Positions 43,168 to 47,708 of a stretch of 64,000 bases of DNA are shown here, piece after piece. This DNA is from Escherichia coli. Its GTDB lineage: Bacteria > Pseudomonadota > Gammaproteobacteria > Enterobacterales > Enterobacteriaceae. Every line of letters starts with the position of its first letter. Within the stretch, counting starts at the first letter, position 1. The notes below the pieces were generated by a model. That model made no database searches. It saw only the letters and a program-made list of their open reading frames with translations, and was not told the DNA's origin. A program made the translations under genes and the position numbers. The stretch lies in NCBI RefSeq assembly GCF_044324785.1, contig NZ_CP172127.1; one strand, given 5' to 3'.

Positions 43168-45216
43168 ATGAACATGTTTTTTAGGCTTACCGCGTTAGCT
43201 GGCCTGCTTGCAATAGCAGGCCAGACCTTCGCTGTAGAAGATATCACGCGTGCTGATCAAATTCCGGTATTAAAGGAAGAGACGCAGCATGCGACGGTGA
43301 GTGAGCGCGTAACGTCGCGCTTCACCCGTTCTCATTATCGCCAGTTCGACCTCGATCAGGCATTTTCGGCCAAAATCTTTGACCGCTACCTGAATCTGCT
43401 CGATTACAGCCACAACGTGCTGCTGGCAAGCGATGTTGAACAGTTCGCGAAAAAGAAAACCGAGTTAGGCGATGAACTGCGTTCAGGAAAACTCGACGTT
43501 TTCTACGATCTCTACAATCTGGCGCAAAAGCGCCGTTTTGAGCGTTACCAGTACGCTTTGTCGGTACTGGAAAAGCCGATGGATTTTACCGGCAACGACA
43601 CTTATAACCTTGACCGCAGCGAAGCGCCATGGCCGAAAAACGAGGCTGAGTTGAACGCGCTGTGGGACAGTAAAGTCAAATTCGACGAGTTAAGCCTGAA
43701 GCTGACAGGAAAAACGGATAAAGAAATTCGTGAAACCCTGACTCGCCGCTACAAATTTGCCATTCGTCGTCTGGCGCAAACCAACAGCGAAGATGTTTTC
43801 TCGCTGGCAATGACGGCGTTTGCACGTGAAATCGACCCGCATACCAACTATCTTTCCCCGCGTAATACCGAACAGTTCAACACTGAAATGAGTTTGTCGC
43901 TGGAAGGTATTGGCGCAGTGCTGCAAATGGATGATGACTACACCGTTATCAATTCGATGGTGGCAGGTGGCCCGGCAGCGAAGAGTAAAGCTATCAGCGT
44001 TGGTGACAAAATTGTCGGTGTTGGTCAAACAGGCAAGCCGATGGTTGACGTGATTGGCTGGCGTCTTGATGATGTGGTTGCCTTAATTAAAGGGCCGAAG
44101 GGCAGTAAAGTTCGTCTGGAAATTTTACCTGCTGGTAAAGGGACCAAGACCCGTACTGTAACGTTGACCCGTGAACGTATTCGCCTCGAAGACCGTGCGG
44201 TTAAAATGTCGGTGAAGACCGTCGGTAAAGAGAAAGTCGGCGTTCTGGATATTCCAGGTTTCTATGTGGGTTTGACAGACGATGTCAAAGTGCAGTTGCA
44301 GAAACTGGAAAAACAGAATGTCAGCAGTGTCATCATCGACCTGCGTAGCAATGGCGGTGGGGCGTTGACTGAAGCGGTATCGCTCTCCGGTCTGTTCATT
44401 CCATCCGGTCCGATTGTTCAGGTCCGTGATAACAACGGTAAAGTTCGTGAAGACAGCGATACCGATGGGCAGGTTTTCTATAAAGGCCCGCTGGTGGTGC
44501 TGGTTGACCGCTTCAGTGCTTCGGCTTCAGAAATCTTTGCCGCGGCAATGCAGGATTACGGTCGTGCGCTGGTTGTGGGTGAACCGACGTTTGGTAAAGG
44601 CACCGTTCAGCAATACCGTTCATTGAACCGTATTTACGATCAGATGTTACGTCCTGAATGGCCAGCACTGGGTTCTGTGCAGTACACGATCCAGAAATTC
44701 TATCGCGTTAACGGCGGCAGTACGCAACGTAAAGGCGTAACGCCAGACATCATCATGCCGACGGGTAATGAAGAAACGGAAACGGGTGAGAAATTCGAAG
44801 ATAACGCGCTGCCGTGGGATAGCATCGATGCCGCGACCTATGTGAAATCGGGAGATTTGACGGCCTTTGGACCGGAGCTGCTGAAGGAACATAATGCGCG
44901 TATCGCGAAAGATCCAGAGTTCCAGAACATCATGAAGGATATCGCGCGCTTCAACGCTATGAAGGACAAGCGCAATATCGTTTCTCTGAATTACGCTGTG
45001 CGTGAGAAAGAGAATAATGAAGATGATGCGACGCGTCTGGCGCGTTTGAACGAACGCTTTAAGCGCGAAGGTAAACCGGAGTTGAAGAAACTGGATGATC
45101 TACCGAAAGATTACCAGGAGCCGGATCCTTATCTGGATGAGACGGTGAATATCGCACTCGATCTGGCAAAGCTTGAAAAAGCCAGACCCGCGGAACAACC
45201 CGCTCCCGTCAAGTAA
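43168..45216 (+). CDS. prc: Tail-specific (C-terminal processing) protease Prc
   Basis: ORF 43120..45216 trimmed to MNMFFRLTALAGLLAIAGQTFA signal peptide (682 aa). Confidence 0.95.
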   Translation: MNMFFRLTALAGLLAIAGQTFAVEDITRADQIPVLKEETQHATVSERVTSRFTRSHYRQFDLDQAFSAKIFDRYLNLLDYSHNVLLASDVEQFAKKKTELGDELRSGKLDVFYDLYNLAQKRRFERYQYALSVLEKPMDFTGNDTYNLDRSEAPWPKNEAELNALWDSKVKFDELSLKLTGKTDKEIRETLTRRYKFAIRRLAQTNSEDVFSLAMTAFAREIDPHTNYLSPRNTEQFNTEMSLSLEGIGAVLQMDDDYTVINSMVAGGPAAKSKAISVGDKIVGVGQTGKPMVDVIGWRLDDVVALIKGPKGSKVRLEILPAGKGTKTRTVTLTRERIRLEDRAVKMSVKTVGKEKVGVLDIPGFYVGLTDDVKVQLQKLEKQNVSSVIIDLRSNGGGALTEAVSLSGLFIPSGPIVQVRDNNGKVREDSDTDGQVFYKGPLVVLVDRFSASASEIFAAAMQDYGRALVVGEPTFGKGTVQQYRSLNRIYDQMLRPEWPALGSVQYTIQKFYRVNGGSTQRKGVTPDIIMPTGNEETETGEKFEDNALPWDSIDAATYVKSGDLTAFGPELLKEHNARIAKDPEFQNIMKDIARFNAMKDKRNIVSLNYAVREKENNEDDATRLARLNERFKREGKPELKKLDDLPKDYQEPDPYLDETVNIALDLAKLEKARPAEQPAPVK

Positions 45217-45221
45217 TATCA

Positions 45222-45252
45222 ATCAGGCACAAGAAATTGTGCCTGATTTTTT
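45222..45252 (+). terminator. Rho-independent terminator after prc
   Basis: atcaggcac-aagaaatt-gtgcctgat hairpin followed by T6. Confidence 0.8.
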
Positions 45253-45330
45253 AACAGCGGCAAGATGCTGTAAATCAGATGCTACAAAATGTAAAGTTGT
45301 GTCTTTCTGGTGACTTACGCACTATCCAGA

Positions 45331-45357
45331 CTTGAAAATAGTCGCGTAACCCATACG
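45331..45357 (+). promoter_or_regulatory. Candidate sigma-32 heat-shock promoter of htpX
   Basis: CTTGAAA (-35) and CCCATAC (-10) resemble the sigma-32 consensus CTTGAAA / CCCCATNT about 50 bp upstream of htpX. Confidence 0.45.
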
Positions 45358-45407
45358 ATGTGGGTATCGCATATTGCGTTTTGTTAAACTGAGGTAAAAA
45401 GAAAATT

Positions 45408-46289
45408 ATGATGCGAATCGCGCTCTTCCTGCTAACGAACCTGGCCGTAATGGTCGTTTTCGGGCTGGTACTGAGCCTGACAGGGATACAGTCGAGCAGC
45501 GTTCAGGGGCTGATGATCATGGCCTTGCTGTTCGGTTTTGGTGGTTCCTTCGTTTCGCTTCTGATGTCCAAATGGATGGCATTACGATCTGTTGGCGGGG
45601 AAGTGATCGAGCAACCGCGTAACGAAAGGGAACGTTGGCTGGTCAATACTGTAGCAACCCAGGCTCGTCAGGCGGGGATCGCTATGCCGCAAGTGGCTAT
45701 CTACCATGCGCCGGACATCAACGCTTTTGCAACCGGTGCGCGCCGTGATGCCTCTCTGGTTGCTGTCAGCACCGGTTTGCTGCAGAACATGAGCCCGGAT
45801 GAAGCCGAGGCGGTAATTGCTCATGAAATCAGCCACATCGCCAATGGTGATATGGTCACCATGACGCTGATTCAGGGCGTGGTGAACACCTTCGTTATCT
45901 TTATTTCCCGTATTCTGGCGCAGCTTGCCGCGGGTTTTATGGGCGGAAATCGTGATGAAGGTGAAGAGAGCAACGGCAACCCGCTGATCTACTTTGCGGT
46001 TGCAACGGTTCTGGAACTGGTGTTTGGTATTCTGGCGAGCATTATCACCATGTGGTTCTCGCGTCATCGTGAATTCCACGCTGATGCGGGTTCAGCAAAA
46101 CTGGTTGGTCGCGAGAAAATGATTGCTGCATTGCAGCGCCTGAAAACCAGCTATGAACCGCAAGAAGCAACCAGCATGATGGCTTTCTGCATTAACGGTA
46201 AGTCGAAATCGCTCAGTGAGTTGTTCATGACTCACCCGCCGCTGGATAAACGTATTGAAGCTCTGCGTACGGGTGAATACCTGAAGTAA
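45408..46289 (+). CDS. htpX: Membrane zinc metalloprotease HtpX
   Basis: 293-aa ORF; HEISH zinc-binding motif. Confidence 0.96.
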
Positions 46290-46304
46290 TATGAAGTAAA
46301 TACT

Positions 46305-46336
46305 AAAAAGCGCGTCCTGATCGACGCGCTTTTTTT
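46305..46336. terminator. Bidirectional terminator between htpX and yebQ
   Basis: A5-gcgcgtc-ctgatc-gacgcgc-T7; the T-run overlaps the yebQ stop codon. Confidence 0.75.
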
Positions 46337-47708
46337 ATGCCCTGGCTCGTGGCTGAGTGATACGTAAACCACTGACACAGGCAGCAATCACTGCCAGAAT
46401 AGCCGCAGCCATCAGCGAGACGTGCGTACCATTATCACCAAACTGATTTAGCATTAGCGCCACCAGCGCCGCGCCGCTACTCTGACCCAGTAGACGAGCC
46501 GTCCCTAACATGCCACTGGCTCCACCGCTACGTTCACGAGGAGCAGAGGTAATAATGGTGTGGTTATTGGGTGACTGGAATAAGCCAAATCCAGCACCAC
46601 ATAAGATCATCGGCCAGATAATATTGATATCCGCAGGTGACGCGGGTAGTAGAACCAGGGAAAAAAGCCCCGCAGCCATGATTAACAATCCTAAAGCACC
46701 CAGCAATCCTGCATGTACGCGTTCAATCAAATAGCCTGCCAGCGGAGCCATCACCATTGTTGCTAACGGCCACGGTGTCAGAAGTAAACCTGTTTCGACT
46801 TCACTACGCCCGAGCACGGTTTGCAGGTAAAAGGGCAGGGAAACCATTGCCAGCATTTGTGCGCAGAAAGAGCAAACAGATGTGCAAATAGAAAGTGTAA
46901 ACAGCGGGATACGCAGTAAATCCACCGGTAGCAGCGGTACGGGAAGAGAAAGCTGGCGGCGAATAAAGAAAATACCAACGACAACCATTACCACCAGTTC
47001 CGCACCAATCAATGTCAGCGATTGCCCCTGAGCGAAACCACTCAACGCAGTGATAAGCAGGCCGAAGGTTAACGCGTTCATCACGGCGCTGGGCAGGTCG
47101 AAACGGGGTTTACTGGCGCGAGAACCATTGGGTGGCAGAAAACGCATTGCCAGAAGCAGGGCGATAATTCCCAACGGTACGTTGATTAAAAATAACCATT
47201 TCCAGGATGCGATGGAGAGGATTGCTGCAGCAATTGTCGGCCCGGCAGCAGAAGAGACGGCAACAATAAACGAGTTTATGCCCATCCCTCTACCCAGAAA
47301 ACGTTGTGGATAGATCAGGCGGATAAGTGCGGTATTAACGCTCATCAAAGCTGCACCGCCGAAACCTTGTATGACACGCGCAAGGGTGAGCATTTGCAGC
47401 GAATCAGAAAGGGCGCAGAACAGTGAAGACAACAGAAAAACGACCAGACCGCATTTATAAACACGTCGATAGCCAAACATATCCCCCAGAAACGAAAACG
47501 AGAGCAGGGAGATGACAATGGCGATTTGATAGGCGTTCACTACCCAGATGGAACTGGCCGGTGTGGCATGAAGGTCTGTGGCGATTGTTGGCAAGGCGAC
47601 GTTGGCGATTGCACCGTCAAGCACAGCCATCGAAATACCAATCACAATGGTTAATATCGCACCGTATCGCTGGGGCAACGGCAGGCCGTCGGCCTGAACT
47701 TTTGGCAT
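46335..47708 (-). CDS. yebQ: MFS transporter (drug:H+ antiporter family)
   Basis: ORF 46335..47819 trimmed to MPKVQADGLPLPQ... (457 aa); polytopic. Confidence 0.85.
   Translation of the reverse strand: MPKVQADGLPLPQRYGAILTIVIGISMAVLDGAIANVALPTIATDLHATPASSIWVVNAYQIAIVISLLSFSFLGDMFGYRRVYKCGLVVFLLSSLFCALSDSLQMLTLARVIQGFGGAALMSVNTALIRLIYPQRFLGRGMGINSFIVAVSSAAGPTIAAAILSIASWKWLFLINVPLGIIALLLAMRFLPPNGSRASKPRFDLPSAVMNALTFGLLITALSGFAQGQSLTLIGAELVVMVVVGIFFIRRQLSLPVPLLPVDLLRIPLFTLSICTSVCSFCAQMLAMVSLPFYLQTVLGRSEVETGLLLTPWPLATMVMAPLAGYLIERVHAGLLGALGLLIMAAGLFSLVLLPASPADINIIWPMILCGAGFGLFQSPNNHTIITSAPRERSGGASGMLGTARLLGQSSGAALVALMLNQFGDNGTHVSLMAAAILAVIAACVSGLRITQPRARA

Follow-up and report, generated by a model that had tools for sequence, protein, structure and literature searches.

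The intergenic spacer ahead of the Escherichia coli gene htpX is a compact stress promoter, and the control region as a whole is best read, with a probability of roughly 0.8, as a promoter of dual type with a CpxR box at 45291-45305, an accessory distal box and a hairpin shared with the convergent gene yebQ. (Positions are those of the window, i.e. the whole 64,000-nucleotide stretch of DNA analysed.) The region is ordinary, functional and essentially already known: regulation of htpX by heat shock and by the Cpx system has long been recognized, and existing catalogues include the htpX terminator. What is added is that the likely CpxR box is located at one position, invariant and in fixed register across the Enterobacterales, that two conspicuous GTAAA pentamers are assigned to different boxes, and that overlap of the yebQ stop codon with the terminator is recurrent and not a one-off. 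From a practical perspective this yields well-defined targets for mutagenesis of the promoter or refinement of the CpxR motif, and opens no new question.

Gene order in the window is prc, htpX and then yebQ, convergent on the opposite strand (Table 1). The upstream limit of the control region is the prc terminator, with a predicted fold of -18.3 kcal/mol (z -6.8); the primary prc 3′ end in the Adams 2021 Term-seq data, K-12 1912733, corresponds to window 45251. The prc-htpX spacer is 191 bp. An Rfam scan of 44500-47000 at a permissive threshold gave no known RNA family, the sub-threshold matches being terminator-like, e.g. STnc420, whose 26.7 bits fall short of the cut-off of 70.

Table 1. Features of the htpX control region and its flanks (window positions)
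Feature	Position	Strand	Details
prc intrinsic terminator	45221-45252	+	12-bp stem, loop, T6
Distal CpxR-like box, GCAAGATGCTGTAAA	45260-45274	+	3′ half-site is the distal GTAAA, 45270-45274
Proximal CpxR-type box, GTAAAGTTGTGTCTT	45291-45305	+	GTAAA-GTTGT-GTCTT; -75 to -61 from the start, centre -68
Conserved block TyT...ACTTA	45306-45317	+	-60 to -49; T-60 92%, T-58 89%, TTA at -51 to -49 81-91%
-35 element CTTGAAA	45331-45337	+	-35 to -29
Sigma-32-type -10, aCCCATAC	45349-45356	+	Read directly
-10 region, CCCATACGAT	45350-45359	+	Sigma-32-type CCCATAC overlapping sigma-70-type TACGAT (45354-45359)
htpX transcription start (A)	45366	+	Two published K-12 datasets
htpX coding sequence	45408-46289	+	ORF list; 293 aa, inner-membrane zinc protease; annotated protease HtpX in E. 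coli genomes
Predicted yebQ terminator, same hairpin	46295-46334	-	Stem directly past the yebQ UAA, then UUUUUAGUAUUU
htpX intrinsic terminator	46305-46337	+	A5 46305-46309; stem GCGCGTC 46310-46316 / GACGCGC 46323-46329; loop 46317-46322; T7 46330-46336
yebQ stop TAA (TTA on + strand)	46335-46337	-	Formed from the final two T of the htpX T-run and the A after them
yebQ coding sequence	46335-47708	-	ORF list

Transcription start and core promoter

With the K-12 coordinates of published transcript ends converted to window positions, two datasets agree on where htpX transcription begins. Kim et al. 2012 has the start 42 nt upstream of the gene, with flanks identical to those in the window, and in SMRT-Cappable-seq it is K-12 1912618, which is the same base, 45366; the 5′ UTR is of the corresponding length. 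HtpX is counted among the heat-shock proteins in the literature, where its expression is also listed as inducible by sigma-H. Correctly ahead of the mapped start is the sigma-32-like promoter proposed in the initial annotation, CTTGAAA followed by CCCATACGAT, and a motif scan for sigma-32 promoters gives a single match in the window, at this position.

The CTTGAAA fits the sigma-32 -35 consensus. The elements, their spacing and a start about 7-9 nt past a -10 region of the CCCCATNT type are those of a sigma-32 promoter, and the likeness extends to dnaK P1 and groES (CTTGAAA ... CCCCATNT), with CTTGAAA at -35, a C-rich CCCAT at -10 to -16 and, in htpX, a start 9 nt past CCCATAC. Unlike these promoters, htpX has A for the first C of CCCCAT, and it keeps GAT at -9 to -7, which fits the -10 hexamer of sigma-70. 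Measured from TTGAAA, the sigma-32 -10 element appears to be closer by about 1 bp than it is in the groE and dnaK promoters. From its sequence, the -10 region could also be read as a sigma-70 element, TACGAT, and in a sigma-70 scan TTGAAA-16-TACGAT scores 9/12, TTGAAA being a sigma-70-like -35 element at a 16-bp spacer.

Taken alone, neither this promoter motif nor the pentamers considered below are significant against shuffled sequence (CTTGAA-N10-15-CCCAT occurs once in the window versus 0.27 expected, and at least once in 24 of 100 shuffles); they are judged real because of their conservation and the published transcript ends. In an Enterobacterales alignment C-35 is conserved at 94% and the AA at -31/-30 at 100%, with CC at -15/-14 at 91-98%, TA at -12/-11 at 96% and GAT at -9 to -7 at 79-89%. 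Conservation of this GAT suggests dual recognition by sigma-32 and sigma-70. RNA polymerase begins at 45366 from a single core promoter, CTTGAAA together with CCCATACGAT, and its dual reading would supply one start for both heat shock and envelope stress.

Two further candidates in the vicinity were set aside. A 5′ UTR hairpin, CGCA-N3-TGCG (45368-45378), is worth -2.7 kcal/mol, shuffles fold as well, and many genera are without it. A sigma-E reading of GTGACTT-N16-TGAAA is a weak by-eye match with no supporting start site.

GTAAA pentamers and CpxR-type boxes

That the Cpx system controls htpX is established at the level of expression, which is up 25-fold in cpxA24 and, when NlpE is overproduced, 38-fold, with the induction lost in a cpxR deletion (level there 0.61). 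A Citrobacter rodentium htpX-lux reporter is likewise CpxRA-dependent. The sequence earlier associated with this control is a pair of GTAAA pentamers at 45270-45274 and 45291-45295, which are present as described, their starts being 21 bp apart. The CpxR-like character suggested for them holds for the proximal pentamer, which starts the conserved box at 45291-45305, and does not hold for the pair as one CpxR unit. A scan with a CpxR matrix, built from 41 known sites that all have their half-sites 10 bp apart, places a proximal and a distal box in the range of those sites and gives a low score to one that begins with the distal pentamer (GTAAATCAGATGCTA).

It is accordingly very unlikely that the two perfect pentamers constitute one non-canonical, widely spaced CpxR site. 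Each is an exact match, the two share a strand and are two helical turns apart, and the exact pair, GTAAA-N16-GTAAA, is unique in the window (shuffle mean 0.11), but at least one such pair arises in 10 of 100 shuffles, and the window has 213 copies of GTAAA over both strands. The half-site spacing common to all known CpxR sites also argues against it, as do the 1.7 bits reached by the box from 45270 and the restriction of the exact distal pentamer to Escherichia, its columns carrying 0.13-0.58 bit across the order. What is conserved as a unit is the proximal GTAAA with the GT 10 bp on (at +10/+11 from the pentamer; 96-100%).

Most likely, then, the main candidate site for activation of htpX by CpxR is the proximal box, which is in fixed register upstream of the promoter and conserved across the Enterobacterales. 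In 52 of 54 loci (Enterobacterales htpX promoters with the motif upstream of the -35 element), GTAAAG[TC] is exactly 41 nt upstream of TTGAA. Unanchored columns of the alignment are near-invariant (G-65 100%, T-64 96%, T-76 100%), and those from -48 to -36 are near-randomised, mostly below 0.35 bit with one column at 0.63. Its matrix score, 8.0 bits, ranks 81 among 127,972 window positions and exceeds 7 of the 41 known sites; with a second half-site, GTCTT, that has 2 of 5 consensus bases, it matches 7 of the 10 core bases of GTAAA-N5-GTAAA, and so is in the known-site range and not distinctive by sequence alone. The htpX site is absent from the compilation of 41 known sites. No such box was found upstream of htpX in Vibrio, Aeromonas, Pasteurellaceae or Gilliamella, and a full-text literature search with the box sequence returned unrelated human or viral primer matches only. 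Other Citrobacter species carry the same proximal box as E. coli htpX.

Phosphorylated CpxR would bind GTAAA-N5-GTCTT there as a head-to-tail dimer and, centred at -68, would switch on the promoter from upstream. The arrangement has parallels in promoters of the Cpx regulon (cpxP, yccA, ppiA, spy), in that a direct repeat of 10-bp periodicity is on the coding strand upstream of the core promoter and expression is strongly CpxR-dependent. A perfect GTAAA followed by G makes up the first half-site, a feature also of the yccA, ompC, tsr and rseD sites. Unlike those regulon promoters, htpX has a degenerate second half-site (GTCTT, of which GT alone is conserved) and a core promoter of sigma-32 type and not plain sigma-70.

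A different proposition is that the block TGTAAAGTTRTGT is bound by a factor other than CpxR, e.g. one of the OmpR/PhoB family, instead of or alongside it, with Cpx control being indirect or shared. A further factor could be involved because T-76, the GTT at -70 to -68 and the additional conserved block at -60 to -49 go beyond what known CpxR sites lead one to expect; the modest score of the proximal box and the substantial CpxRA-independent activity retained by Citrobacter htpX-lux are also pertinent. Nevertheless, this is unlikely, given that the invariant GTAAA with GT 10 bp on reproduces exactly the CpxR repeat core and its spacing, that few genes depend on CpxR as strongly as htpX, that the box spans an order using CpxR and the GTAAA consensus, and that the literature searched gave no alternative regulator. 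CpxR acting directly at the proximal box is the preferred reading.

With respect to the distal box, its 10.2 bits make it the best match to the CpxR matrix in the region (rank 33 of 127,972 window positions), and like the proximal box it scores within the range of the 41 known sites. At its offset of -31, scores of at least 10 bits are confined to Escherichia and Pseudescherichia/ESNIH1, with some Citrobacter and Enterobacter at 2.8-4.2 bits and the box absent elsewhere. In K-12 its first half-site is disrupted by A at 45260 and C at 45269, and because of this weakening the box is regarded as accessory at most. In Escherichia such a weaker second box, three helical turns further up, may assist the proximal one. 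It was in K-12, with its weakened distal box, that the strong Cpx induction of htpX was measured.

Some other matches to the CpxR pattern were rejected. An alternative box, GCTACAAAATGTAAA (45281-45295, 7.8 bits), uses the same proximal pentamer, and is discarded because its first half-site varies (0.12-0.30 bit) while the GT at 45301-45302 is invariant. TTAAACTGAGGTAAA (45384) and GTAATATGAAGTAAA (46286) overlap a ribosome-binding site or stop codon, the latter match being also not conserved, and both are taken as chance.

The hairpin between htpX and yebQ

Termination of htpX at the hairpin downstream of it, as the initial annotation had it, is borne out by SMRT-Cappable-seq, in which 21 full-length reads end at K-12 1911647, equivalent to window 46337, and 1 passes through, the site being classed as 'terminator'. 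Reads covering htpX only run in full from 45366 to this position, and the transcript is monocistronic. Since the protocol involves poly(A) tailing, the true 3′ end could be 46336. The nearest known termination site is centred on K-12 1911665 (window 46319, in the hairpin loop), and the portion of the Adams 2021 Term-seq supplement text searched has no htpX 3′ end. A GC hairpin, a U-run and a 3′ end at 46336/46337 are together what characterizes an intrinsic terminator; the fold on the + strand is worth -18.0 kcal/mol (z -4.3), and 0 of 200 shuffles fold as well. A terminator scan missed this element on the + strand, a technical effect and not evidence against it, because A:T pairs extend the stem and in doing so consume the T-run.

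The T-run had also been said to contain the yebQ stop codon, and two of the three stop bases do lie within it. Such overlap of stop and T-run recurs in 18 of 32 species with a convergent yebQ, and spans three families although the hairpin sequence has turned over completely. With A5 on one side and T7 on the other, the hairpin should stop the convergent yebQ transcript too. In that direction the terminator scan gives 12 pairs and T5, with a fold of -19.4 kcal/mol (z -5.1) that 0 of 200 shuffles equal. Terminators acting in both directions are reported as common where E. coli genes converge, and those known from SEnd-seq share with htpX/yebQ a single GC hairpin between an A-tract and a T-tract, here in a 45-bp convergent spacer. 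In contrast to them, the yebQ stop is inside the U-tract of htpX, so that on the yebQ side the stem follows without an intervening 3′ UTR, and the experimental support at htpX/yebQ, from full-length reads, is for the htpX direction.

Tentatively, the hairpin might end htpX transcripts only, with those of yebQ ending elsewhere, whether through Rho, read-through into htpX antisense, or blocking of the hairpin by a ribosome, and with the overlap reflecting compaction. The stem on the yebQ strand begins directly after the UAA, and a terminating ribosome would therefore cover its 5′ arm; the U-run in that direction is of 5 U only; and the stop is outside the T-run in 14 of the 32 species. The parts of the Term-seq and SMRT-Cappable-seq supplements searched also have no yebQ 3′ end, though yebQ may be weakly expressed. 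This possibility merits some weight, but it is the less favoured one, as the - strand element has the usual features of an intrinsic terminator and the stronger fold, bidirectional terminators are reported as common in this setting, and, where the site is split by IS200C, the end of the IS provides a new hairpin and T5 directly past the yebQ stop. Use of the one hairpin by both genes is predicted.

Wider readings and occurrence of the region

More ambitious constructions can be placed on either end of the region, and even jointly these two are rather improbable. One starts from an invariant module of 32 bp, aaaaTGTAAAGTTRTGTnTTTnT...ACTTA, which keeps a constant distance of 41 nt to the -35 element. 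If this is a composite, CpxR and a second factor, or the alpha C-terminal domain, would drive a promoter common to sigma-32 and sigma-70, and folding stress in the cytoplasm and in the envelope would be integrated at one start across the whole order. The other concerns the stop codon in the U/A-tract, which would link termination of yebQ translation to formation of the hairpin, antisense read-through into htpX being gated as a result.

Of 5,426 complete E. coli genomes, 5,424 contain the region, which is annotated prc / htpX / yebQ, and E. coli N3 matches the window at 100% identity.

The htpX transcription unit and its promoter

The region in question (45150-46450) is 100% identical to that of E. 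coli strain N3 and is found in 5,424 of 5,426 complete E. coli genomes with the annotation prc, htpX, yebQ; compared with K-12, and leaving aside the htpX coding sequence, only six positions differ, including 45260 and 45269. The K-12 MG1655 order is proQ-prc-htpX, convergent yebQ, then kdgR, with no further annotated feature in the spacers (a K-12 position p corresponds to window position 45408 + (1912576 - p)). The GTAAA pentamers, CTTGAAA and CCCATACGAT, the hairpin and the yebQ stop codon are all present where the initial annotation had them. By themselves the bare motifs are statistically uncompelling: the window holds 213 copies of GTAAA, the chance expectation for an exact GTAAA-N16-GTAAA pair is 0.11 per window (10 of 100 shuffles have one), and that for the sigma-32-like pattern is 0.27 per window. 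The hairpin is well above chance expectation (-18.0 kcal/mol on one strand and -19.4 on the other; z -4.3 and -5.1).

Features of the htpX region and related matches (bits: log-odds CpxR matrix; rank within the window)
Feature	Position	Strand	Basis or score
Distal box, GCAAGATGCTGTAAA	45260-45274	+	10.2 bits, rank 33
GTAAATCAGATGCTA	start 45270	+	1.7 bits, rank 1,121
GTAAA pentamers	45270-45274, 45291-45295	+	read in sequence
Proximal box, GTAAAGTTGTGTCTT	45291-45305	+	8.0 bits, rank 81 of 127,972
Block 3' of proximal box	45306-45317	+	conserved
CTTGAAA	45331-45337	+	read in sequence
CCCATACGAT	45350-45359	+	read in sequence
5' UTR hairpin, CGCA-N3-TGCG	45368-45378	+	-2.7 kcal/mol
TTAAACTGAGGTAAA	45384-45398	+	CpxR-like match
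GAGG	45391-45394	+	ribosome-binding motif
htpX coding sequence	45408-46289	+	ORF
GTAATATGAAGTAAA	46286-46300	+	12.95 bits, rank 9
A5 flank	46305-46309	+	read in sequence
Stem, GCGCGTC / GACGCGC	46310-46316 / 46323-46329	+	read in sequence
T7 flank	46330-46336	+	read in sequence
yebQ stop TAA (TTA on +)	46335-46337	-	yebQ ORF end at 46335
yebE CpxR site, GTATATCGAGACAAA	26439-26453	-	as published

A single htpX start has been listed, 42 nt 5' of the ATG, and the 51-nt upstream sequence given with it equals that of the window, its last base, the A of GTGGGTA, being 45366 (Kim et al. 2012). SMRT-Cappable-seq yields full-length primary transcripts spanning b1829 alone, from 1912618 to 1911647, i.e. 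45366 to 46337, with 21 reads stopping at the 3' site (class 'terminator') and one reading through; the nearest known terminator is centred at 1911665, window 46319, in the hairpin loop, and the resource used there holds the htpX terminator as a 'known TTS' (Yan et al. 2018). Since the method adds a poly(A) tail, the A at 46337 may be untemplated and the true end 46336. With the prc 3' end located by Term-seq at 45251, within the T-run of the prc terminator (45221-45252), the htpX unit is thus a 972-nt monocistronic transcript with a terminator on each side.

The start common to both datasets agrees with the sigma-32-like promoter initially proposed, rather than lying elsewhere, and the -35 and -10 bases are conserved. 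Counting from 45366 as +1, CTTGAAA occupies -35 to -29 and CCCATACGAT -16 to -7, which fits the sigma-32 consensus, CTTGAAA / CCCCATNT, and makes the promoter one of the sigma-32 type known from heat-shock genes. The literature counts HtpX among the heat-shock proteins and lists it as sigma-H-inducible. A sigma-70 scan scores TTGAAA-16-TACGAT at 9 of 12. Among 53 Enterobacterales promoters, the sigma-32-type CC at -15/-14 is 91-98% conserved, T-12, A-11 and T-7 are 89-96% conserved, and G-9 and A-8 79-85%. Conservation at -9 to -7 is unexplained by a sigma-32 -10 element alone and a sigma-70 hexamer accounts for it; joint retention of the two kinds of signal suggests a dual sigma-32 / sigma-70 promoter with a single start.

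The promoter, upstream box and terminator are each of a textbook kind, the gene is well studied, and the feature, which is real and functional, is known already in substance. What is added is the likely position of a CpxR-type box and its invariance across the order, a reading of two boxes in Escherichia, and the finding that overlap between stop codon and T-run recurs.

Two observations concern the leader. The 5' UTR hairpin, at +3, is conserved in Enterobacteriaceae, and shuffles fold equally well. Between the GAGG motif and the ATG lie 13 nt, an unusually long spacing, and the motif falls inside a CpxR-like match.

A probable CpxR box upstream of htpX

For 80 htpX loci, one per species, the 200 nt 5' of each gene were examined. 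GTAAAG[TC] occurs 25-60 nt 5' of TTGA[AT] in 54, every one from Enterobacterales, and the distance is exactly 41 nt in 52 of these. Conservation in non-anchor columns is 100% for T-76 and G-65, 96% for T-68 and T-64, and 92% for T-66 and T-60; most of the columns in between (-48 to -36, -28 to -20) hold below 0.35 bit, and as divergence there is saturated, invariance of the box reflects selection. The conserved unit, GTAAA-N5-GT..., is centred at -68. Vibrio, Photobacterium, Aeromonas, Pasteurellaceae and Gilliamella lack such a box 5' of htpX, and several of them retain a sigma-32-like promoter there.

Expression data point to CpxR. Levels of htpX mRNA are up 25-fold in cpxA24 and 38-fold with NlpE overproduction, and down to 0.61 in a cpxR deletion; a Citrobacter rodentium htpX-lux fusion has CpxRA-dependent plus residual CpxRA-independent activity, and other Citrobacter species of the comparison set have an identical proximal box. 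CpxR in Yersinia, Xenorhabdus and others also uses a GTAAA-based consensus. Direct CpxR binding at htpX did not turn up in the literature covered, so the likely assignment of the proximal box to CpxR draws on its motif and position, its conservation, and htpX expression. The predicted box starts with GTAAAG, as do the sites bound by CpxR at yccA, ompC, tsr and rseD, and it would work as they do.

The initial annotation had tentatively paired the two GTAAA pentamers, 21 bp apart, as a CpxR-like repeat. A log-odds matrix from 41 known CpxR sites, htpX not among them (Zhao et al. 2022, Table S1), places the proximal box above 7 of the 41 and does not favour the pairing. Box conservation and matrix scores assign the pentamers to two different boxes, the distal GTAAA as the 3' half-site of one and the proximal GTAAA as the 5' half-site of the other, with centres 31 bp, about three helical turns, apart; the pairing is wrong in detail. 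Only in Escherichia and Pseudescherichia/ESNIH1 does the distal box reach at least 10 bits; its score is 2.8-4.2 bits for some Citrobacter and Enterobacter, and elsewhere a counterpart is lacking. It is also polymorphic within E. coli: position 45260 is G in the window and another lineage, whereas the A of K-12, where 45269 is C as well, abolishes the invariant G that opens the first half-site. Strong Cpx induction of htpX was nevertheless recorded in K-12 derivatives, so the distal box plays an accessory part at most.

T-76, next to the proximal box, and the GTT of its spacer vary less than known CpxR sites predict, and a second partner besides CpxR may be involved. A further block just 3' of the box, comprising T-60, T-58 and ACTTA (-53 to -49), shows 81-92% conservation in the 53 promoters. 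A sigma-E-like reading of its region (GTGACTT-N16-TGAAA) is a weak match and unsupported.

The putatively shared terminator and the yebQ stop codon

On the plus strand the T-run comes after the 7-bp GC stem, and the htpX transcript stops at the end of the run, in line with the terminator reading initially given. As the yebQ ORF ends at 46335, the yebQ TAA is the complement of the run's last two T plus the next A. A terminator scan called the element on the minus strand only, the plus-strand call being missed because the scan extends the stem by A:T pairs, thereby consuming the T-run. On the minus strand the yebQ UAA leads directly into the A5-extended stem and then UUUUUAGUAUUU, an arrangement that qualifies by sequence as an intrinsic terminator. 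As no yebQ 3' end was seen in the portions of published transcript-end datasets covered, we only infer that the hairpin may act bidirectionally. A ribosome halted on the UAA of yebQ would sit over the stem's 5' arm, and might lower termination in the yebQ direction. The element is of the ordinary bidirectional type among intrinsic terminators between convergent E. coli genes, which are reported to be widespread.

A hairpin and T-run lie 3' of almost all htpX genes in the 80 loci. In 18 of the 32 with a convergent yebQ homologue, including Escherichia, Citrobacter, Enterobacter, Pseudescherichia, two Erwinia and Serratia oryzae, the stop codon is again made up of the final two T in the run and the next A, and the hairpin sequences of these loci are completely different from each other. 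In the remainder the stop is usually farther off, by anything from a few nt to some tens, with one homologue about 2.1 kb away.

In E. coli PCN033 (locus L082, 1488-2196) and at least two more strains, IS200C is inserted between 46336 and 46337, i.e. between the T7 run and the next A, inside the yebQ stop codon. Its right end (...atttatt) restores the TAA and it supplies its own hairpin and T5 directly past it; htpX retains its hairpin and T7 as before. The yebQ C-terminal tail of E. albertii NBRC 107761 (locus L002, about 1034-1130) is frameshifted, ending in ...LSHETRHKKARQPGRAF, and passes through the entire hairpin to a TAG stop adjoining the A-tract; either a genuine variant or an error in the draft assembly could account for this.

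Another match to the CpxR consensus, GTAATATGAAGTAAA, with one mismatch, overlaps the htpX stop codon. It is retained in E. albertii and gone in another E. coli lineage and Citrobacter, a patchiness that makes it probably a chance match. The published yebE CpxR site also occurs in the window, which thus holds a second strongly Cpx-regulated promoter.
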